Part shown: positions 5,566-16,716 of the stretch, one piece after another
How the letters are laid out: the number at the start of each line of letters is the position of its first letter
How positions within the stretch are numbered: the first letter of the stretch is position 1
DNA from: a virus
DNA: 64,000 nucleotides
IMG/VR virus record: IMGVR_UViG_3300046171_000193
Coordinates: 1-64,000 of that record
Strand: one strand, 5' to 3'
Program-made: the position numbers and the translations under genes
The notes under the pieces: model-generated
Told to the model about the DNA's origin: nothing
The model's database searches: none
The model's input: only the letters and a program-made list of their open reading frames with translations

Positions 5566-5592
5566 AGGACGGCTTTATGCCGTCCTTTTTTT
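5566..5592 (+). terminator. intrinsic terminator
   Basis: AGGACGGC-TTTAT-GCCGTCCT followed by a T-run. Confidence 0.85.
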
Positions 5593-5593
5593 A

Positions 5594-5601
5594 TATAAAT
5601 A
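5594..5601 (+). promoter_or_regulatory. T4-type late promoter TATAAATA
   Basis: Exact gp55 consensus in an intergenic position. Confidence 0.75.
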
Positions 5602-5625: not shown

Positions 5626-7005
5626 ATGGCTACGTTTAAAGATATGAGTAGGCGCGAATGGGAAAAAACCGTAAGCGGAAGCTCTGTTTCAAGAAGAGAT
5701 GTATTTGTAGATGCAATAAAAGCTGGAGATCCTGTCAGTGATATAGATGGTAACGATGTTATTATTGCAAACACAAAAGATAATATTGATGCATTAGATT
5801 TCTATTTACAATCAGAACCTGGAAAAAGAGGTAAAGACTTCTTTATTTTAAGTAAAAAAGACGGTGGAGTAATACAGTCTAATAAAATTGGTAAATCGCC
5901 TTTGTTTGGTGGTGCTGGAACTGGAGGAGGCGCAACAGGAAAGACTGCTCAGGCAGAATCATTGCAATGCATTTATATAGCTGCTATGCTAGGAGAAGGA
6001 AGTAGAAATGAGTTTTCTCATTTTACTTATGAAACATTAAAAGGTTATTCAACAAATGTTTCAGTAGACGTATCCTTTGACGATTATATGTCTCTTGATG
6101 GCGATTGGCATATGTCATCTTATCTTATTGCTAAAGCATTAATCAAAGCAAAATATGTAACTAGTCGTCATACTATTCACCGCGGTGATGCCTTAATGGA
6201 ATCTATTTACAAAGAAAAAGATAGAGTCAGAAAATTAGAAGGTAAACCACGTCTAGATAATGATAAATGGAATCCAGGTGATATATGGGCAGTTAAGTCT
6301 GGAACAAATCCGAAGATAATTTTTTCGAAAGCAAAAACTTTAGAAGAACTTAATGTCTTAATTAAAAAACATTTTATCGATAGATCTATTGTTGGTATTT
6401 CTCTCAAAAAGGTTGCAGCAAATAAACGAGTAAAAATCTCTGAATATAATATAGAAGTCAAAGAACAAGATAAACATACGTTTACAGGTATAACTCTTGA
6501 TACTGCAGGAAAAGGAGTATTCTCATCTAAATATGGATTCTTTATTTTTGATAGAACTAAGAAGGCTGAAGTTAGATCACCTAATGTTTTCTCTGCTTTA
6601 AATATGGAATTAAAAGGAGTTAGAGCAAAAGGCGGTAGAACCGGATATGGACAATTAATATATTCTGCAGGTGTCCATTTAAAAAAGGTTTTACCACCAA
6701 ACACAGATCTTGTGACTAAAGCAAAAATATTAGGAGGAGCTAAACCTCCTAATATGATGGTAAATGATTTTTTTAATCTTATTAAAAAGATACATCCGAA
6801 TACGGAGCGAGTAGAATTTGAGTCTCAAATGAAATCAAAAAACGCAGGATTCATTCACGCTCTTTACGCTGCAGCTCATGTTGGTGCAGCACTAATGGCA
6901 GCTACTAAAACACAAAGAGATAATTTTACATCAGAAATAGTAAGTGTTATGGCAGCAAAAACAGCAGAATCTTCTGCTTATGTAAAAGCAGAAGAAAAAG
7001 GATAA
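5626..7005 (+). CDS. putative PD-(D/E)XK nuclease-fold protein
   Basis: AESLQ...KWNPGDIW...GISLKK pattern. Confidence 0.55.
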   Translation: MATFKDMSRREWEKTVSGSSVSRRDVFVDAIKAGDPVSDIDGNDVIIANTKDNIDALDFYLQSEPGKRGKDFFILSKKDGGVIQSNKIGKSPLFGGAGTGGGATGKTAQAESLQCIYIAAMLGEGSRNEFSHFTYETLKGYSTNVSVDVSFDDYMSLDGDWHMSSYLIAKALIKAKYVTSRHTIHRGDALMESIYKEKDRVRKLEGKPRLDNDKWNPGDIWAVKSGTNPKIIFSKAKTLEELNVLIKKHFIDRSIVGISLKKVAANKRVKISEYNIEVKEQDKHTFTGITLDTAGKGVFSSKYGFFIFDRTKKAEVRSPNVFSALNMELKGVRAKGGRTGYGQLIYSAGVHLKKVLPPNTDLVTKAKILGGAKPPNMMVNDFFNLIKKIHPNTERVEFESQMKSKNAGFIHALYAAAHVGAALMAATKTQRDNFTSEIVSVMAAKTAESSAYVKAEEKG

Positions 7006-7022
7006 AGATAAAGGATAATATA

Positions 7023-7610
7023 ATGCAGTGGATAAGTGAACATGATCCTATCGAGGAACACGATTTAAATATAGACGTCGATCTTCTATATATGGACTAT
7101 ATCAGATTTATAAAACAAAACGAACACGTAACAGACGACGCTCGCAACATTGATTTTAATGCAGTATGCGTCAATAGAATACCTGGTGATCCTAACTCGG
7201 TCACTGGTGGAAATGTCAGAGGTAAGTATTGGACTTATCCAACTGACGAAGATAAAGAAGAAGAACGTCTGCCATACGTAGATGAAGCCGCATACACCGA
7301 AATTTGTCCAGAATTTGAGGACACATATACTGAAGAGGTATTTAGTTTATTAAGTTTAAAGTGGAATATTGGTAGACTCAGGTTCTTGATGAAACCCCCC
7401 AGATCGTGCCTGTCTTGGCACAGAGATCCAGAGCGGAGAATCCATATTCCACTTTACACCAACAAAGGTTGTAGAATGATTATTGAAGATCGTGCATATT
7501 ATATGCGTGCAGATGGTACAGTTTACATTACGGACAATACTGTATATCATAACTTCTTTAATGGCGGTGAGGAAAATAGAGTGCATTTAGTTGCAACAAA
7601 ACTAGAATAA
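7023..7610 (+). CDS. 2OG-Fe(II) oxygenase, Asp/Asn beta-hydroxylase-like
   Basis: WHRD, RIHIPL, YHNF, NRVHL. Confidence 0.8.
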   Translation: MQWISEHDPIEEHDLNIDVDLLYMDYIRFIKQNEHVTDDARNIDFNAVCVNRIPGDPNSVTGGNVRGKYWTYPTDEDKEEERLPYVDEAAYTEICPEFEDTYTEEVFSLLSLKWNIGRLRFLMKPPRSCLSWHRDPERRIHIPLYTNKGCRMIIEDRAYYMRADGTVYITDNTVYHNFFNGGEENRVHLVATKLE

Positions 7611-7614
7611 ACTG

Positions 7615-7643
7615 TGTACATTCGATTAGAAATGTGATATAAG
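7615..7643 (+). promoter_or_regulatory. early-type promoter TGTACA-N17-TATAAG (leaderless ATG 6 nt downstream)
   Basis: Motif match; no SD before 7650. Confidence 0.75.
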
Positions 7644-7649
7644 GGTTAT

Positions 7650-8879
7650 ATGGAAAATTTTAAAACAAGCATAACCGAAAACAAAAATACGCATATGACC
7701 CATATCGAAGATAAGGTTATATACGGCGGTGTCAATGGAACACGAGATGCGATTATGGCCTTACGTTCTTTGAGAGATATGTTGGCAGGTCAACACGAAG
7801 GTAATGTGTCAGTTAAGTGGGATGGAGCTCCAGCAGTATTTGCTGGTATCGATCCGACTGACGGAAAATTCTTTGTAGCAAAGAAAGGTATCTTTAACAA
7901 GAATCCTAAAGTGTATAAAACACCTGCAGATGTTGATGCTGATACCTCTGGCGATCTCTCTGACAAACTGAAAGATGCTCTTAAGTTTTTGCCAGATCTT
8001 GGTATCAAAGGAGTTATACAAGGAGACTTCTTATTCGGCCGTGGTGATTTAAGCAAAACAAAAATAAACGGTGAACAATATACCACGTTTCATCCTAATA
8101 CTATTGTATATGCAGTACCAAGTAAATCTCTAGCTGCAGCTGCTGTAAGAAAAGCAAAGATGGGAATTGTTTGGCATACAACATATACCGGTAAAACATT
8201 TGAAACTATGAGAGCTTCTTATGGTGTAGATGTTTCTAAATTAAAAAAATCTAATGCAGTCTGGTCTCAAGATGCTATGCTAAGAGACTTGACTAATATA
8301 ACAATGTCAAAACGTGATACGGAGGAAGTGAATGAATATCTATCAACTGCTGGTAAAATTTTTAACAGGATCTCAGGAACAACACTTAGGGAGCTCGAAA
8401 AACAGGAAGAGTTACAGAGGCTCATTGAAACCTACAACAACTCCTTTGTCAGAGCAGGCACAGTCATTGGAAATACAAGAGGACATGTATCTGGGCTCAT
8501 TCGTTTCATCTCTCAAAGATACAAAAAAGAAATAGATAAACGCAAAACTGAAAAAGGTAAGACCGCTCAGCAGCAAAAATTAGATACAATATTGTCATTT
8601 TTTAGCGTACAAAACAAAAAAAGTTTAGAACAACTATTTGAATTGCAAAAAGTTATTGTTCTGGCAAAATTAAAACTTATAAATATACTAAACAAGCTAG
8701 CGAAGGTGAAGACCTTCGTAAAGACACAAAATGGATACAAGGTAACTGGAGAAGAAGGTTACGTTGCAATTGATAAACTTGGTGGTGATGCTGTTAAGAT
8801 TGTTGATCGAATGGAATTTTCGTACAACAACTTTAGCAAGGATATATTAAAGGGATGGGATAAACCGGGAAGAAGTTAA
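7650..8879 (+). CDS. conserved T4-like phage protein with ligase-type nucleotidyltransferase motifs (DUF6267-like)
   Basis: KWDG (motif I), IQGDF (III), EEGYV (IV), AVKIV (V); N-terminus MENFKTSITE. Confidence 0.65.
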   Translation: MENFKTSITENKNTHMTHIEDKVIYGGVNGTRDAIMALRSLRDMLAGQHEGNVSVKWDGAPAVFAGIDPTDGKFFVAKKGIFNKNPKVYKTPADVDADTSGDLSDKLKDALKFLPDLGIKGVIQGDFLFGRGDLSKTKINGEQYTTFHPNTIVYAVPSKSLAAAAVRKAKMGIVWHTTYTGKTFETMRASYGVDVSKLKKSNAVWSQDAMLRDLTNITMSKRDTEEVNEYLSTAGKIFNRISGTTLRELEKQEELQRLIETYNNSFVRAGTVIGNTRGHVSGLIRFISQRYKKEIDKRKTEKGKTAQQQKLDTILSFFSVQNKKSLEQLFELQKVIVLAKLKLINILNKLAKVKTFVKTQNGYKVTGEEGYVAIDKLGGDAVKIVDRMEFSYNNFSKDILKGWDKPGRS

Positions 8880-9412
8880 TGTATAGTTTTAAAGAACTAA
8901 TGGTAATGCCTGTTGAAGCAGGCGAAGACGAGTACTTAAAGTACCGTGCGATGAAGCGTCGTAAGCACATGTATGAAGCTACGATTCCTGATGGCCAAAC
9001 AGCCATGACAAAGAAACCTGATCTTACCAACAAAGATAAGAAAACTATGGGTAAGATTGCAGATCTCATGAAGCGTGCTAATGAGGACAATGAGGAATCT
9101 ACAGACGAAGCGTTATCAATGAAAACACGGATGAAACGTTCCCGTGACATGAAAAGAAATAAAAACAAATTAGGTATGGCGCGGAAGCGTATGATGAAGC
9201 GTGTAGCAAATCCTGCACGAATCAAGAAGCGTGCACGTAAGCAAGCCAGAGACATGATATATAAGAAGCTGACAAAAGGTATTCCACGGTCTGATCTGAC
9301 GCCAGCAAAGAAAAATGAACTTGAAAAAAGAATTGACAAAATGAAGCCAAGAGTAAATAGACTTACGCGCAAAATAATGCCAAAAGTAAGACAGAGAGCT
9401 CATGGTAAATGA
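8879..9412 (+). CDS. highly basic putative internal virion protein
   Basis: MYSFKEL N-terminus; K/R-rich. Confidence 0.65.
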   Translation: MYSFKELMVMPVEAGEDEYLKYRAMKRRKHMYEATIPDGQTAMTKKPDLTNKDKKTMGKIADLMKRANEDNEESTDEALSMKTRMKRSRDMKRNKNKLGMARKRMMKRVANPARIKKRARKQARDMIYKKLTKGIPRSDLTPAKKNELEKRIDKMKPRVNRLTRKIMPKVRQRAHGK

Positions 9413-10542
9413 TCAATAGATTTAGTGAGTATTTAGTAGAGGAAGAACGTATTGGTTATTTGGTCTTTGGCCGAATGAATCCTCCTACTATTGGACATGG
9501 TAAATTATTAGATAAGCTTGCAGCAACAGCTGGTCGGGCACCTTATCGCATCTATCTGTCGCAGTCAAATGATGAAAAAGATAATCCGCTTACGTATTCT
9601 GAGAAGGTTAAGTTCGCACGTAAAATGTTTCCAAGGCATGCAAGATCTATTATTATTGATAAAAAAGTTATAACTCCCTTTCATGCATTGTCAGCAATGT
9701 ATAACGCAGGATTTAAAAAGGTTGTCTTGGTTGCTGGCTCAGATCGTGTAAAAGAATACGATTTGCGTCTCAACAAATATAATGGCAAAAAGGGTTCTCA
9801 CGGCTTTTATAATTTTGAAAACGGCGTAAAGATAGTTAGTGCAGGTCAAAGGGATCCTGATGGTAAAGGCGCAGAAGGTGCATCTGGTACAAAACAAAGA
9901 GGCTATGCAAAGAGTAATGATTTTACAGGATTTTCTCAAGGGCTAAGTAAAGCCATGTCAAATCCTGATGCGAAGAAGATGTTCAATGCTGTACGCAATG
10001 GTATGGGATTAAAAGAAGAACATGAATTTAAAAGACATATTCAACTTAAGTCCGTATCAGAAACTAGAGAAGCTTTTGTTAAAGGCGAACTCTTCGAACT
10101 CGGAGAGCAAGTCATTATCAAGAAAACATCTGAGGTTGGTAAAATCACACTCATCGGATCGAACTACGTCATTGTAGAAACTTCTGATAAGACTACGAGA
10201 CAGTGGTTAGATGCTGTTGAGAAGATTGTAGAAGAAGCAAAGTACGATTATGGAACTGATGCTTCAGTAAAATATATGAAAAAGACCACGCCTGGTCAAA
10301 ACGAGGACAGTACTCCTCAGGACTCTGATATTAAAGATCGTAAAGGATCACAACCAAAAGATTATCATAGAGGCCTGAAGAAAGCAACAAAAGTAGCAAG
10401 AGACCGCCACTTTAAGAAACACGGTAAAAAAGCAGATAACGATTCTAGTGCATATAAGCCAGCACCAGGTGACAAAAAGAATAAAGGTAAAACTAAACAA
10501 TCGACTTGGACTACTAAGTTTAAGCAGATGTATGGGGATTAA
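9409..10542 (+). CDS. HxGH nucleotidyltransferase (cytidylyltransferase/NMNAT superfamily) with C-terminal SH3-like and basic modules
   Basis: FGRMNPPTIGH, DNPL, VAGSDR, SAGQRDPD, SGTKQR. Confidence 0.85.
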   Translation: MINRFSEYLVEEERIGYLVFGRMNPPTIGHGKLLDKLAATAGRAPYRIYLSQSNDEKDNPLTYSEKVKFARKMFPRHARSIIIDKKVITPFHALSAMYNAGFKKVVLVAGSDRVKEYDLRLNKYNGKKGSHGFYNFENGVKIVSAGQRDPDGKGAEGASGTKQRGYAKSNDFTGFSQGLSKAMSNPDAKKMFNAVRNGMGLKEEHEFKRHIQLKSVSETREAFVKGELFELGEQVIIKKTSEVGKITLIGSNYVIVETSDKTTRQWLDAVEKIVEEAKYDYGTDASVKYMKKTTPGQNEDSTPQDSDIKDRKGSQPKDYHRGLKKATKVARDRHFKKHGKKADNDSSAYKPAPGDKKNKGKTKQSTWTTKFKQMYGD

Positions 10543-10782
10543 ATGATAAACTTCAAAGAATATATCACAGAAGATAAAGCAGGTAGCTCACTTGCCGATA
10601 AATCTAAAAAGTCAGGTATCTCTACAGGTACTTTGCGTAAAGTATTTAATCGTGGCGTTGCTGCATGGAAAACCGGTCACAGACCTGGCACCACGCCAAC
10701 TCAGTGGGGACATGCACGAGTCAATGCTTTTATTGTCAAAAAGAAAAAAGGTGGGCTTAACCATGATAAGGACCTAGCATAA
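10543..10782 (+). CDS. small basic putative virion protein (DUF5824-like)
   Basis: MINFKEYITE; RGVAAWKTGHRPG...WGHARVNAF. Confidence 0.65.
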   Translation: MINFKEYITEDKAGSSLADKSKKSGISTGTLRKVFNRGVAAWKTGHRPGTTPTQWGHARVNAFIVKKKKGGLNHDKDLA

Positions 10783-11129
10783 TGAAATCTTTTATTCAAA
10801 TAAGGCAGGAACTAAATGAATCTCCTTACGGTGATCCATATAGAACTGTTCAACGAACAAAAGATGCTATGTCTAGTCATACTGCTGCTATAAAAAAACA
10901 TGATACAGCTATGCAATCTCATATAAACAAAGCTGATGCTGCAGAGAAAAAGGGTTTAAATACCAAAGCTGATAACCATAGAGAAGCTGCTAATGCACAC
11001 CACCTTGGAAAAGAAGATCACGATCACGCTAAAAGCTTATTAAAAAAACATGGACCAGATCATAATGGATATGAATCAGCTGCAAAAAGTGCACATTCAA
11101 GTTCAGATCGTATTCATAAAGATAACTAG
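10782..11129 (+). CDS. His-rich putative internal virion protein
   Basis: MKSFIQIRQELNE; 12 His, many at i/i+7 spacing. Confidence 0.65.
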   Translation: MKSFIQIRQELNESPYGDPYRTVQRTKDAMSSHTAAIKKHDTAMQSHINKADAAEKKGLNTKADNHREAANAHHLGKEDHDHAKSLLKKHGPDHNGYESAAKSAHSSSDRIHKDN

Positions 11130-11138
11130 GGGTTAAAA

Positions 11139-12839
11139 ATGAAAACATTCAAAGACTTAAGAGAAGCCTCAAGCGTTTCATCAAGCAATGCACAGCACAT
11201 GCTTAGTAATGATGCTGAGAAAAAAGCACATTCAGCTCTCATGCAAAAGAAGCATGACGTTAAAACAACTTATCATGGCAGCGATGAACTAAAATATCAC
11301 GGTTCTCAAAAGAATGTAAAGAAAGCTCTTGGTACTCATTATGGCGGTGATCATGATCATGCAAAAGATGATCATCCACACATTTATAAAGAAAACGTCA
11401 AAACCGCTGATAGAAAACCTGAAATCTATACAAAGCCTGATGGAAAAAAGGGTACACGTATGGTGCCTGTGGATAGAGAAGTTATCAAGCAGGAAAAAAC
11501 TCTTGAATGGCTAAAGGCATCGCTTGCAAGAGAAGCAAAGAAAGTTAAACCACGTCAAGACGATATGGAAGAAGCTTACGAGAACACAATGTACTGTAAA
11601 AAGTGTGGGTGTGAGAGAGGTAATCCAGATCCTGACTGTTCATGCAAAATGGAAAACGCTTCATTGACAGATGCACAATGTTATTCAGAACAATCTAAAT
11701 GTGGATCTTTACGTAAAGAAGACGTTAACGAGCTAACAATTGCTGATGTCCAAAAGGCTACTGCGATGGCAAAGAAACGTCAAGCAAAAGAACGTGAAGC
11801 CGGAAAGAAAAGTGTATCAACCACTGATCTTGGAGCACGTATGCCTAAAAAAGAAACATTTGAGCCTCATATGATGTATGATCCAAAAACAGGCAAGGGC
11901 TATAAAGCTGATAAAGAAGCCGATCATCTTCGCATGAAGAAAATGGGATACACGCATGACAAACCTAAGAATGAAGCCCACGATCCTAAGCACGTCAAGC
12001 AGGCAGTCGGCATTGCGTCTGATCCCAGATACAAGGGCGGAAATATGACAGGCGCAACTAAGGTGATTAATAAACTTTCAAAAGGTTTGTCAGATCATCC
12101 TCAAGTTAAAGCCGTACTAAAACGTCAGAACGAGGGCCTTAAAACTTTTGCCGAGATTTCAAAAGGTATGGCAGGTCGTTATATTAAAAAGGCGCAAGTA
12201 AGTACAGCAGATGCTGCAAAGAGTACTGAGCGTGGATACACTGACTCTCGTTCTCAAGATCGTGATATTTCTAAAGCAGGAAAAGATCAAGCTAAAAAAG
12301 GTATTAAGACGTTTATTAATCGTAATAAAGGTACATCTACTGCAGTTAATAAATTAACTGGTAAAGCTAAAGTACCTGCAAAAGAAGGTATGGCACAAGG
12401 CATTGTAAAACAAAAAATATCTAGAGAAAAGGATATGGATGCCAAGAGACATGACCGAATGATGGACCGTGCAAGAACATCAGATACTAAAAAGAAAAAT
12501 ATGAGTGAAACTTTGGATCATCATAAAAAAGCATTAGATCACCATCGGAAAATGAGAGATGCACATATGCATGCTGATGATCATGATCCAGGCGATACTC
12601 CTCATTATAAATCAGCCGAACATCATGGAGATGCTGCGATTCAACATTCATATATTATCGATCGAATGAAAAAAGATAAAAATCATCCTGAGTTAAAAGA
12701 TCGTGTGGCGAATGCACATAAACAATCTATTAAAGCTAATAAACATACATCTACGTCACATTCAAGATCAAAGCACGATCCTAAGTTTAGAAGCCGGTTC
12801 GACGATCATTTAAAGAATAACGGCGGAACTAGTAAATAA
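11139..12839 (+). CDS. modular, hydrophilic, His/Lys-rich putative internal virion polyprotein
   Basis: MKTFKDLRE; modules separated by x-x-E sites; Cys cluster CKKCGC; His-rich C-terminus. Confidence 0.7.
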   Translation: MKTFKDLREASSVSSSNAQHMLSNDAEKKAHSALMQKKHDVKTTYHGSDELKYHGSQKNVKKALGTHYGGDHDHAKDDHPHIYKENVKTADRKPEIYTKPDGKKGTRMVPVDREVIKQEKTLEWLKASLAREAKKVKPRQDDMEEAYENTMYCKKCGCERGNPDPDCSCKMENASLTDAQCYSEQSKCGSLRKEDVNELTIADVQKATAMAKKRQAKEREAGKKSVSTTDLGARMPKKETFEPHMMYDPKTGKGYKADKEADHLRMKKMGYTHDKPKNEAHDPKHVKQAVGIASDPRYKGGNMTGATKVINKLSKGLSDHPQVKAVLKRQNEGLKTFAEISKGMAGRYIKKAQVSTADAAKSTERGYTDSRSQDRDISKAGKDQAKKGIKTFINRNKGTSTAVNKLTGKAKVPAKEGMAQGIVKQKISREKDMDAKRHDRMMDRARTSDTKKKNMSETLDHHKKALDHHRKMRDAHMHADDHDPGDTPHYKSAEHHGDAAIQHSYIIDRMKKDKNHPELKDRVANAHKQSIKANKHTSTSHSRSKHDPKFRSRFDDHLKNNGGTSK

Positions 12840-12861
12840 TAAATTATATGGGAGACAATAA

Positions 12862-13209
12862 ATGAAAACCTTTTTGCAATTACAAGAAGATATGGATAAA
12901 ATAAAGAAGCCAAGTGCTTCAGAGAGACATGTGATGGTATCACAATCTGGTAGATGGAGCCAATATCACGGTTATGCAGGCAAGGGCTCCACCACTCATG
13001 ATATGCATAATCATGTCAAAGAGACATTGAAACAGTATCCTGACCATAAACCACTGCACGATCATGCCAAAAAGCATGTAGAACATATTACTGCGCTTCA
13101 TCATGCACATATGGCTTTAAAAACTGCTGAGGATAATATGATGAATAGTAAATATAAATTAGATGAACACGAACGAAATGCCTATGGGCGTAAACATAGT
13201 GGTAAATAA
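12862..13209 (+). CDS. His-rich putative internal virion protein
   Basis: MKTFLQLQE; 15 His in 115 aa; GGAG RBS. Confidence 0.65.
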   Translation: MKTFLQLQEDMDKIKKPSASERHVMVSQSGRWSQYHGYAGKGSTTHDMHNHVKETLKQYPDHKPLHDHAKKHVEHITALHHAHMALKTAEDNMMNSKYKLDEHERNAYGRKHSGK

Positions 13210-13255
13210 TTAATATGGATAAAATCAACCATAACAGATTGTTTGGAAGACAGGG

Positions 13256-13498
13256 ATGACAACTACACGAGAACACCTAATGCAAATATGGGGTATTGAA
13301 CAGGTCGCAGATCCACACGCTGCAACTGCCGGAGATGAAGTAACAGAAGGTCCGGCAAGAGATCGTCTCCTAAAGCAAATGGATAAAGCTAGTGGTAGAA
13401 CACAAGCCGATCGTGAAGCTGATGCAAAGAAAGCTGCGGAACGACGTAAGGCTGCAGATAAAGACTTAGCTGATTTTAAAAAGAAAATGGGATCATGA
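13256..13498 (+). CDS. hypothetical protein
   Basis: In operon; ATGA coupling to next gene. Confidence 0.6.
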   Translation: MTTTREHLMQIWGIEQVADPHAATAGDEVTEGPARDRLLKQMDKASGRTQADREADAKKAAERRKAADKDLADFKKKMGS

Positions 13499-13728
13499 TA
13501 AAGTTTAAGCAATTCATATCTGAAAAAAAATCAGAGTCTTGGGAAGCAGGATATAAACGTAGAGTTGTGAAAACTACAAGTGCAGAACATAAGGCTAAAG
13601 GTTACAATTGGAGAATCAAAGGTAAAGAACGTCCTGAGATTTCTATTAAATTATATAAATCTAAACCAAATCAGGCCGAGTTTAATCGCCAGATGAAAAG
13701 AGTAGCGGGGCATGAGTTCGGTGGATAG
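13495..13728 (+). CDS. small putative internal virion protein
   Basis: MIKFKQFISE N-terminus. Confidence 0.65.
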   Translation: MIKFKQFISEKKSESWEAGYKRRVVKTTSAEHKAKGYNWRIKGKERPEISIKLYKSKPNQAEFNRQMKRVAGHEFGG

Positions 13729-14011
13729 GTTTAAGACTTTCGTAGAAAAAGACTCAAAGGGTCATTTTCGTGCAACCGATAAGGGTGCAGGTATGACACA
13801 AAAAGGAGTCGATGCTGAAAATAGAAGGACTGGTGGCAACCTAAAGACTGCGGTTACTACTAAACCTAGTAAACTAAAAAAGGGATCTAAAGCAGCTAAT
13901 AGGCGTAAATCATATTGCGCTCGCAGTGCTGGACAAATGAAAAAGTTTCCGGCTGCAGCCAAAGATCCTGATAGTCGACTTCGTCAGGCGAGGCGGAGGT
14001 GGAATTGTTAG
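13712..14011 (+). CDS. small basic phage protein (DUF6321-like)
   Basis: RRKSYCARSAG...DPDSRLRQARRRWNC; DRFKTFVE near the N-terminus. Confidence 0.65.
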   Translation: MSSVDRFKTFVEKDSKGHFRATDKGAGMTQKGVDAENRRTGGNLKTAVTTKPSKLKKGSKAANRRKSYCARSAGQMKKFPAAAKDPDSRLRQARRRWNC

Positions 14012-14044
14012 GCTATGCGACAAACTCTAGAATTAACTACGGAA

Positions 14045-14323
14045 ATGAAAATGACTACTAATGCTAGATTAGACAGAATTGAAGAGAAGCTTGATAACCT
14101 CACCGAGGCTATGATTGCTTTAGCGCGCGCTGAAGAAAAGATCGCCGGTATTAAACAAGCCCAAGATAGTGGTTGGGAACGTATGAATAGATTTAGTGAG
14201 AAGTTAGATAGCATAGAGCGACAGGTTGGGGAGAATGCCAACACTGTAAAAATAATAAATAAATTATTCTGGGTAGCAGTTATAGCTGTGGCCGGATCAA
14301 TCGCAGCCCAAATGTGGATGTAA
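14045..14323 (+). CDS. coiled-coil protein with a C-terminal TM helix (XhlA/holin-like)
   Basis: RLDRIEEKLD coiled coil; LFWVAVIAVAGSIA. Confidence 0.55.
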   Translation: MKMTTNARLDRIEEKLDNLTEAMIALARAEEKIAGIKQAQDSGWERMNRFSEKLDSIERQVGENANTVKIINKLFWVAVIAVAGSIAAQMWM

Positions 14324-14334
14324 AGGAAACTAAA

Positions 14335-15150
14335 ATGAAAACACAAGACATAAGAAATATGGGCCTCGCTTTGCAATCGGTCCAAGAGAAAATATTAACA
14401 CAGAAAGACAAAGAAAAAGCTTTGGCTAAAGCTGCACGTTCAGCAAAGCCAAAAGACCAAGTATCTTTGAAACCTATGCCAACATCCTTAGCTAAGAAAA
14501 TGGCTAAAGACGAAGGCTATAGTGGTATGGTTTCTCCAGAAAAGAGAGCTGAGATTAAGAAAAAAGTAGATGCTAATATGGATTCAATAAGGGCAAAAGG
14601 TGGACAAGCCGCTGTTGATAGAGCCACTGATATAACCAGAGTAAAAGGATATAGCGGACCTAAAAAAGCCAAATCAGAAGCATTGAAAGGTGATCAACAT
14701 AAACTAGATCACGATAAAGATGGCGACATCGATGCAGCTGACTTTAAGAAATTGCGCAGTAAGAAAAAAGGCGAAAAGTCTGAAGTGAAACCACGTCAAG
14801 AACCTGATACCGAAAAAGGAAAGGGTGATGCACCAATGGAAAAAACTGAATCTACACGCTGGCCAGTATACGCTCGTATCATGGAAAAGCAAGATCGAGG
14901 AGAGCATTATAAAAGTGCTACGGATGCTGAGAAGATGGATTCAAAAGAAAATCCAGGTGGCAAAAAAATGAGAAAAGATATGAAAGCTGATAATCCTGAT
15001 GTAGATGATACAGAATCTAAAAGTCATCAGGATGCAGCAGATGCTGGTCGTAAAGGACCTGGCATGAAAGCTCGCTCTAATGATAACATGAAAGGCGATA
15101 AAGCAATTGTAAACCCAGTAAAAGGAGCAGTGACAAGTGGCAGCAATTAG
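14335..15150 (+). CDS. hydrophilic putative virion protein with an EF-hand-like loop
   Basis: DHDKDGDIDAAD; AAGGA RBS. Confidence 0.65.
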   Translation: MKTQDIRNMGLALQSVQEKILTQKDKEKALAKAARSAKPKDQVSLKPMPTSLAKKMAKDEGYSGMVSPEKRAEIKKKVDANMDSIRAKGGQAAVDRATDITRVKGYSGPKKAKSEALKGDQHKLDHDKDGDIDAADFKKLRSKKKGEKSEVKPRQEPDTEKGKGDAPMEKTESTRWPVYARIMEKQDRGEHYKSATDAEKMDSKENPGGKKMRKDMKADNPDVDDTESKSHQDAADAGRKGPGMKARSNDNMKGDKAIVNPVKGAVTSGSN

Positions 15151-15493
15151 TCCTCCAGGTTGGGCGAAGAACGCAACTCCAACCTTAAATGGTTGGAAAG
15201 ATCCTCGAACCAATGAATTATTAAAATCACAAAACATTTCCCAGGAAGCTATTGATGCGTATATGGGTGTAAGCAAAACAGTATCTAGTAGGCCGGTTAA
15301 ACCTGCAAGAGAGGAAGTTGCTCCACCGCCTAAACCTATGCAGCTCAATGAAGCACCTGCCAATCATAAAAGTCTAGATGACATGAATAAAATGGAACTT
15401 GAAGCTCATGGCAGAACAATGGGTGTTGAGTTAGACCGCAGAAAAAACAAAGACACATTAATTGAAGAATTAAAAGAGATTGTAGACGACTAA
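15137..15493 (+). CDS. hypothetical protein with a C-terminal Rho-N/SAP-like helix-extension-helix
   Basis: LDDMNKMELEAHGRTMGV...KDTLIEEL; AAGGAG RBS with GTG start. Confidence 0.55.
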   Translation: MAAISPPGWAKNATPTLNGWKDPRTNELLKSQNISQEAIDAYMGVSKTVSSRPVKPAREEVAPPPKPMQLNEAPANHKSLDDMNKMELEAHGRTMGVELDRRKNKDTLIEELKEIVDD

Positions 15494-15527
15494 TAAATAA
15501 GTCAAAGTACTTATTATTGGAAGCACA

Positions 15528-15893
15528 ATGAAATTTGATAATGTAACAGAAAGCAATTTGCTTTTGTATGCGGCCCAAAACTATCATAATCCTCTGGTCG
15601 CAAGCTCAGAGGATTTTTACGAAGATCTGAAAAGATTTAAATATATTAAAAGATTAGTAAACCGTTATTTATCTACTAGTGAATTATCTGAAAGACTAAT
15701 ACTAAATCATCTTATTATTATTTTTAATATGTTTGGTATTGAAGCAGGATGTAAGATATTGGAATTAAAACTCGATGAGCGCCATTGGCCAGTCATCAAG
15801 CCGTTTCTAATATTTTTGCGTTATATTACAAATACTGAATACACTCAGTACGAAATGGATAATGTAGTAGTAGAAGCGTTAAGGAAAATATAA
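15528..15893 (+). CDS. conserved T4-like phage hypothetical protein
   Basis: EDFYEDLKRFKYIKRL, ERLILNH; AATAAATA late-like element at 15492. Confidence 0.7.
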   Translation: MKFDNVTESNLLLYAAQNYHNPLVASSEDFYEDLKRFKYIKRLVNRYLSTSELSERLILNHLIIIFNMFGIEAGCKILELKLDERHWPVIKPFLIFLRYITNTEYTQYEMDNVVVEALRKI

Positions 15894-16459
15894 TGGGTGT
15901 TATTAAGAGAGCAGCCGATTTAGTATATACATTTAGGTTCCTCAAGTTGTTAGTAACTCCTTTTGAGAAGACAGACGCGTACCGCTTAGGAATTATTGAC
16001 GAAAAAGGTAAAAAGCTTCGTAGGGCAAAGACTGAAGAAGAAAAGAATATATACACTCCTTTTCATAGATTAGTGTATAATATTAAGAAGCTAATACCTG
16101 GTGGTAAAATAGGTTCATATGCTTCCGCTCTTTATTTAATTAAAGAAGATGGAAACTTATCAGATAAATCTATTGAAAAGATTATGGAAGAATTAGGTTT
16201 AGACTCTGAGGAGTTTATGCTATCAGAAAATAAATGGTTTGTGTGCGAAGACAAAATGTTATCACCTGGAATTTACAAAGTGCAAGGTGAAAAGATGCTA
16301 AGCACGTCATATGAAAATATAGTAAAGGCTAAAGATCAAATACGAGTATTAGAAAATGCATATCCCATTGATGAAATATATGGTATTGATATTTACGAAG
16401 CTATTCATATGAACACAAATCAATTAATACACATAACTTCTATGGAGCTGATTAAATGA
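15893..16459 (+). CDS. conserved T4-like phage hypothetical protein
   Basis: RFLKLLVTPFEKTDAYRLGIIDEKG. Confidence 0.7.
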   Translation: MGVIKRAADLVYTFRFLKLLVTPFEKTDAYRLGIIDEKGKKLRRAKTEEEKNIYTPFHRLVYNIKKLIPGGKIGSYASALYLIKEDGNLSDKSIEKIMEELGLDSEEFMLSENKWFVCEDKMLSPGIYKVQGEKMLSTSYENIVKAKDQIRVLENAYPIDEIYGIDIYEAIHMNTNQLIHITSMELIK

Positions 16460-16716
16460 AAGAAGCAGGATTATGGGCAAATATCTGGGCTAAACGCCGT
16501 GCCGGCAAAAAGATGCGTAAAAAAGGTGAGAAGGGTGCACCTACCGCTGATGCAATTAAAAAGGCCCAGGAAATGGCAGGCGGAACTTCAACCGCATCTG
16601 TTGTAGGTGCAGGAGACAATCCTTCTGGCACTGTTGTTATAGATAAACGTAGACGTAAGGATAGAGATCCTAGAGTACTAAAACGTTTTAGGACACACTC
16701 AGAACAAAATGCTTAG
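16456..16716 (+). CDS. small basic protein
   Basis: GLWANIWAKRRAG module; ATGA coupling. Confidence 0.6.
   Translation: MKEAGLWANIWAKRRAGKKMRKKGEKGAPTADAIKKAQEMAGGTSTASVVGAGDNPSGTVVIDKRRRKDRDPRVLKRFRTHSEQNA

Follow-up and report, generated by a model that had tools for sequence, protein, structure and literature searches.

The question raised by this locus is why nine neighbouring genes, whose products have little else in common, begin with variants of one short N-terminal motif. The window analysed comprises bases 1-64000 of the 151,681-bp IMG/VR virus record IMGVR_UViG_3300046171_000193, the source of which is an uncultured marine T4-like myovirus. Genes are named here by the window position of their start. 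The shared N-terminus is probably a T4-type capsid targeting sequence (CTS), by which the proteins would be loaded into the head and then trimmed by the prohead protease. A first-pass annotation had proposed this for a locus running from 7650 to 16716, with at least nine packaged proteins, two enzymes among them.

The shared leader and its T4 counterpart

Nine gene starts within 7650-14011 share M-x-x-F-K-x-[FYL]-[ILV]-x-E, for example MINFKEYITE, MIKFKQFISE, MKTFKDLRE, MKTFLQLQE and MENFKTSITE, and the nine N-termini quoted in the first-pass annotation were all found at the starts assigned to them. An aromatic residue at position 4, hydrophobic residues at 7-8 and a Glu at 9-10 are conserved. 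The counterpart is the CTS of the T4 internal proteins (IPs), reportedly treated by Mullaney and Black in 1996. In the T4 genome (NC_000866), ipII and ipIII begin with MKTYQEFIAE and ipI with MKTFKEF...ITE. Mutagenesis of the T4 leader has linked residues 4 and 7 to targeting and residues 8 and 10 to processing (PMC9026906), and the window leaders carry the corresponding features, an aromatic residue at 4, hydrophobic residues at 7 and 8, and Glu at 10.

Genes 10543 and 13495 match the T4 register exactly, and 7650 has a Ser at position 7. The leader is one residue shorter than that of T4 in 11139, 12862 and 13721, and the register of 9409 (MINRFSEYLVE) is shifted by one residue. Looser leaders are found in 8879 (MYSFKELMVMPVE) and 10782 (MKSFIQIRQELNE). 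Translated from its ATG, gene 13712 has the N-terminus MSSVDRFKTFVE; initiation at a GTG in the same frame, at 13721, would give MDRFKTFVE, in the exact T4 register. Because the genes from 14015 to 16716 lack the leader, the tagged block is 7650-14011, and the locus end first placed at 16716 was too generous.

Enrichment of the leader and of basic proteins

Leader statistics covered all 215 genes called in the genome, with the block taken as the 13 starts in 5626-14011. The pattern M..[FY][KQ], derived from the T4 internal proteins only, occurs at 6 of the 13 block starts and at 2 of 202 elsewhere (Fisher 3.5e-7), and an aromatic residue followed by hydrophobic-x-Glu at 7/13 against 1/202; p-values of this kind are generous because the block was picked after the data had been seen, and even so the enrichment is a large effect. 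The sole outside match to the second pattern is the major capsid protein gp23, in T4 a substrate of the prohead protease. A matrix derived solely from the three T4 leaders placed all ten candidates (5626 included) in the top 44 of 206, with the 13495 leader, the best match to that of IPII/IPIII, at rank 1, and leave-one-out matrices gave ranks 1-7 for the nine genes and 29 for 5626; since the Phe-Glu distance varies, such a fixed-width matrix is a rank test only.

The tagged proteins are also basic, with isoelectric points (pI) of 9.1-11.1 in all nine against a genome median of 5.5. A pI above 9 is found in 9/9 tagged proteins and in 44 of 206 other genes (Fisher 1.9e-6), and the pI of the T4 internal proteins is 8.9-9.5.

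Evidence for a portable signal at the protein level

Among the window leaders the same residue is written with differing codons and the upstream DNA is unrelated, so the leader is not a DNA repeat. Across 59 related loci, positions 2, 3, 5 and 6 vary freely, with Ile8 encoded by ATA, ATC or ATT, Thr9 by ACT, ACA or ACC, and Glu10 by GAA or GAG; Phe4, Ile/Leu8 and Glu10 are kept despite this synonymous variation. The tag is conserved as protein. Behind it the nine proteins are unrelated, save that 10782 weakly resembles the C-terminal part of 11139.

The tag is modular, present or absent on homologues of the same enzymes, and of the internal arguments for a portable signal this is the strongest. 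Among 103 representatives of DUF6267, the family of 7650 (clusters at 50% identity), 76 have an N-terminal extension of at least 11 residues before the conserved NxHxxHxED start, CTS-like in 61 of the 76, and 27 begin directly at the domain. In the AF2 model of the window protein, residues 1-10 are the only segment with pLDDT below 50. The C-terminal half of DUF5824 is fused without a leader to the cytidyltransferase end in relatives and has its own leader as a separate gene (10543) here, with its linker replaced by MINFKEYITEDKAG. In the 5626 family, an MLRFKxFLLEK-type leader precedes the conserved MSRxEW start in 33 of 115 members, and the window copy lacks it. The 5626 start (MATFKDMSRRE) was considered as a tenth tag and ruled out, because MATFKDMSRREW is the domain start itself, with nothing prepended.

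Head machinery and proposed route

A T4-type head module (Portal_T4, Peptidase_S77, T4_CASP and Gp23) lies at genome positions 106997-112097. The head machinery required by T4-type CTS cargo is encoded at 109018-110745, as a gp21-type prohead protease (Peptidase_S77, 127.5 bits) and a gp22-type scaffold forming the core (T4_CASP, E 1e-65), and gp23 of this phage has an LTE/A site ahead of its conserved domain. The proposal that the leaders are T4-type targeting sequences gains support both from the match at experimentally defined positions and from this set of protease, scaffold and capsid genes. The capsid gene (genome 110764-112097, outside the window) is itself split, with Gp23 positions 2-177 and 297-376 in different frames and about 300 bases of shifted frame between the halves. 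Errors of assembly or indels seem a better explanation of the split than an intron.

The nine proteins are probably packaged cargo, because their leaders closely copy the T4 head-loading tag. Late in infection, the leader of about 10 residues would bind them to the gp22-based scaffolding core during prohead building, and the gp21-type protease would cut after the Glu of the hydrophobic-x-Glu site. Once matured, the basic proteins would remain beside the DNA inside the head and exit with it at the next infection, as T4 IPI-III and Alt do. Homologues argue for the presence of the cargo in virions, and the cut site, ejection and host function are proposed by analogy only.

The locus in relatives and in virion proteomes

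The closest relatives of the DUF6267 gene are in Phage C48C1 (67% identity), Stenotrophomonas phage DLP6, Methylophilales phage Melnitz and Pelagibacter phage HTVC008M, and it also matches hundreds of cyanomyoviruses. All records that were examined are classed as Kyanoviridae. Tagged starts are present at the corresponding locus in C48C1, Melnitz and HTVC008M. In each of 23 IMG/VR relatives that have 6.5 kb or more of sequence downstream of DUF6267, 2-5 genes match the pattern (median 3.5 with the window included) against 7 in the window, so the largest tagged set among the phages compared is found here. The DUF6267, cytidyltransferase and DUF5824 genes are conserved across relatives, 8879 and 11139 have matches in only one or two of them, and 10782, 12862, 13495 and 13712 have no counterparts in the relatives compared. 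This variability of the small genes recalls, as an analogy, the variable internal-protein genes of T-even phages.

Homologues of the cytidyltransferase (9409) have been detected in virions of the cyanophages S-SCSM1, S-SZBM1 and S-CREM2 (PMC9602691, PMC9146016, PMC10665884). In the S-SCSM1 record, ORF89 to 93, 95 and 97 of the syntenic locus are marked as virion proteins by mass spectrometry. The cytidyltransferase homologue is ORF91, with the start MKSFLQFLKE, and ORF89 begins MDSKTFNSLSE. ORF90, also listed as a virion protein, is a homologue of 5626, an untagged virion-protein candidate. S-CREM2 virions yielded ORF154 (MKNFSSFLTE, the cytidyltransferase homologue) and ORF155 (MSRFEELRTQKE), and S-SZBM1 virions the cytidyltransferase homologue ORF140 (MRFRQFIIE); S-SZBM1 ORF141, a DUF6267 protein without a leader, is absent from the virion table. 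The three proteome papers do not mention a targeting sequence, and a full-text literature search for capsid targeting sequence with cyanophage matched only a T4 review. The claim of nine packaged proteins including two enzymes is sustained in part: the motif, the basic character, the late-like unit and the detection of one enzyme's homologues in three cyanomyovirus virions speak for it, and packaging remains a prediction.

Alternative explanations

Several observations weigh against a CTS. For this phage itself, packaging, cleavage and injection are predicted from sequence and analogy. Four of the nine leaders are off the T4 register (8879, 10782, 12862, and 13712 from its ATG), and the late promoter assigned to the block is only a consensus match. 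The cyanophage proteome papers themselves caution that late proteins made in large amounts may co-purify with the particles. Across the S-SCSM1 genome the association of a loose leader pattern with virion status is not significant, 3 of 10 matching annotated starts being virion proteins, and the locus includes several virion proteins that have no leader. S-SCSM1 ORF30, with the perfect leader MKTFKQFMSE, was not detected in virions. ORF30 (L008:44215-44535) encodes a 106-residue hypothetical protein and is flanked by virion genes.

The leaders could also target the prohead core without delivering effectors, if most of the small, low-complexity basic proteins serve in assembly or in neutralising DNA charge and are cut to peptides and largely lost, as are T4 gp22, gp67 and gp68. 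Genes 10782, 11139, 12862 and 13495 encode such low-complexity, Lys- or His-rich proteins, with no family match in Pfam or PHROG searches, and 11139 is a mosaic of modules. We regard this as unlikely, however, since two tagged proteins are well-folded enzymes and the cytidyltransferase homologue persists in mature virions. Far less probable still is selection on the mRNA, either for A/U-rich initiation in late expression or as a translational repressor site. The leader codons are A/U-rich (AAA, TTT, ACA) and RegA, a translational repressor, is annotated in the relative HTVC008M, but synonymous codons vary freely with Phe4, Ile/Leu8 and Glu10 kept, the regions upstream are unrelated, and the leader is a discrete module of 11-14 residues, present or absent before a fixed domain start; the association with basic pI would also be left unexplained. 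That the leader directs proteins elsewhere, for example to the membrane, into secretion or to degradation, is suggested by the short amphipathic character of the peptide and by the hydrophobic C-terminal tail of the neighbouring gene 14015. This reading is highly doubtful, as the leader lacks both a hydrophobic core and a signal-peptidase site, its match to T4 is close and position-specific, and homologues are found in virions. A T4-type capsid targeting sequence thus remains the likely explanation.

The predicted enzymes

Gene 7650 scores 341.6 bits against DUF6267 (PF19782), where the curated cut-off is 27, over residues 13-396, and belongs to this family. K56-x-D58-G59, E369-G370 and K383 are invariant in 72 DUF6267 sequences; the ligase-type set of a KxDG lysine, an EG and a Lys is present, and we take these to be ligase motifs I, IV and V. 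In the VIA comparison the AF2 model (pLDDT 93.7) matched the RNA ligases 5cot (Naegleria), 2hvq and 1s68 (T4 Rnl2) and the tRNA ligase 6n0t at Z 7.2-7.9 over 168-200 residues, a range in which chance arrangements occur. The other VIA matches were dominated by a helical insertion, and Foldseek returned weak DNA-ligase rows only, with no match at E <= 0.001 against the PDB for the DUF6267 or the 5626 model. A PDB sequence search with DUF6267 gave no match, and NCBIfam gave no meaningful family match, only a single hsdR match on 7650 far below the cut-off. DUF6267 may be an RNA-ligase-like nucleotidyltransferase, an assignment made with moderate confidence.

The second enzyme, 9409, is a putative HxGH nucleotidyltransferase by its PHROG matches (Table 1), although its Pfam CTP_transf_like score of 18.6 bits lies below the cut-off of 21; PF01467 occurs in 13-61% of the members of its Atlas clusters. 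The model of 5626 is well defined (pLDDT 91.7) and has no convincing fold match. A HaeIII/HpaII-type nuclease was considered for 5626 and set aside, both the Atlas lead (0.83) and the MspI match (Z 2.8) being too weak.

Anti-defence or takeover roles for the tagged proteins, as raised in the first-pass annotation, are speculation. One rather improbable version is that the RNA-ligase-like and NMNAT-like enzymes are a pre-loaded counter-defence kit conserved in marine T4-like phages, delivered with the DNA and acting before phage gene expression, for instance by rejoining tRNA that has been cleaved or by replenishing NAD+ once abortive-infection systems of the host have fired, and that the variable small basic proteins are strain-specific inhibitors like T4 IPI*.

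Relation to known systems

T4 IPI, IPII and IPIII and their targeting sequence have been reviewed (PMC3012670, PMC9026906). The window genes resemble them in the M-x-x-aromatic-[KQ]-x-hydrophobic-hydrophobic-x-Glu leader, in encoding basic, otherwise unrelated proteins alongside gp21/gp22/gp23 machinery, and in a gene content that varies between relatives. The three T4 genes occupy two sites, whereas the nine tagged genes here form one contiguous late block, include proteins of 377-566 aa, belong to a marine host lineage and are known from genes alone. The payload, described at first as far larger than T4's three IPs, does comprise more protein species, in a comparison that counts species only and with T4 also packaging Alt. 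Alt is a packaged, gp21-processed ADP-ribosyltransferase (PMC9026906), and the tagged enzymes would be head-carried and protease-trimmed in the same way, although they are predicted to be an RNA-ligase-like nucleotidyltransferase and an HxGH nucleotidyltransferase.

The virion enzymes of S-SCSM1, S-SZBM1 and S-CREM2 are homologous to 9409 (32-34% identity), with the same kind of leader and a syntenic locus upstream of ribonucleotide reductase genes. Their papers report detection only, which they call unverified, and no targeting signal, and this phage has more tagged neighbours. The ejection proteins of the giant phages phiKZ and SPN3US are likewise numerous, packaged in the head and trimmed by their own prohead proteases at x-x-Glu sites. 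They differ in their longer propeptides and capsid lineage and lack the short T4-type leader. The locus probably presents a known mechanism on new proteins, two enzymes among them, and T4-type head loading itself is understood as before.

Should the leader function as it does in T4, the head cargo of abundant phages of SAR11, OM43 and cyanobacterial hosts could be read from sequence alone, and the recurrence of NMNAT-like enzymes in cyanophage virion proteomes, left open by the three proteome papers, would be explained. The tagged set is a short list of candidate early-acting factors, with two enzymes to assay.

Gene content and transcription

Table 1. Features of the tagged block and its upstream boundary (window positions).
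Feature	Position	Strand	Details
Intrinsic-terminator-like hairpin closing upstream unit	5566..5586	+	8-bp stem, 6 GC pairs, then T run
T4-type late-promoter-like box TATAAATA	5594..5601	+	25 nt upstream of ATG 5626; consensus match only
5626	5626..7005	+	459-aa basic protein, phrog_1462, first gene of unit
DUF6267 enzyme	7650..8879	+	leader MENFKTSITE; Pfam PF19782, E 9e-102
177-aa very basic protein, pI 10.6	8879..9412	+	leader MYSFKELMVMPVE, weaker match
HxGH nucleotidyltransferase ("cytidyltransferase", NMNAT-like), putative	9409..10542	+	leader MINRFSEYLVE; phrog_3041 E 1e-63, phrog_395 E 1e-59
79-aa protein, C-terminal half of DUF5824	10543..10782	+	leader MINFKEYITE; Pfam DUF5824 positions 63-125
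115-aa basic His-rich protein	10782..11129	+	leader MKSFIQIRQELNE; no Pfam/PHROG family match
566-aa basic low-complexity mosaic protein	11139..12839	+	leader MKTFKDLRE
115-aa basic His-rich protein	12862..13209	+	leader MKTFLQLQE
77-aa basic protein	13495..13728	+	leader MIKFKQFISE
DUF6321 protein, pI 11.1	13712..14011	+	alternative GTG start 13721 giving MDRFKTFVE

Ten TATAAATA boxes are present in the window, several of them just upstream of gene starts, and no terminator comparable to the strong hairpin at 5566 was found on the + strand between 5586 and 19929. Judging from these consensus matches, the tagged genes may fit a long late transcription unit.

The C48C1 homologue of 8879 begins MLSFKQFVSE. 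DUF5824 is split across 9409-10782, with profile positions 1-53 at the end of the cytidyltransferase and the remainder in 10543, and is fused in relatives. The modules of 11139 are common to separate genes of Melnitz and C48C1. One of them, ISREKDMDAKRHDRMMDRARTSDTKKKN, lies inside 11139 here but is found C-terminally in the cytidyltransferase of relatives; modules are thus mobile among the genes of the locus. His-rich stretches with an HDHAK-like motif are common to 10782, 12862 and the ends of 11139. Beyond the tagged block, the DUF7207 protein and the FRFLKLLVTPFE protein that follows it (15528-16459) have no leader and are not flagged as virion proteins; both are conserved in all relatives compared, from cyanophages to HTVC008M.

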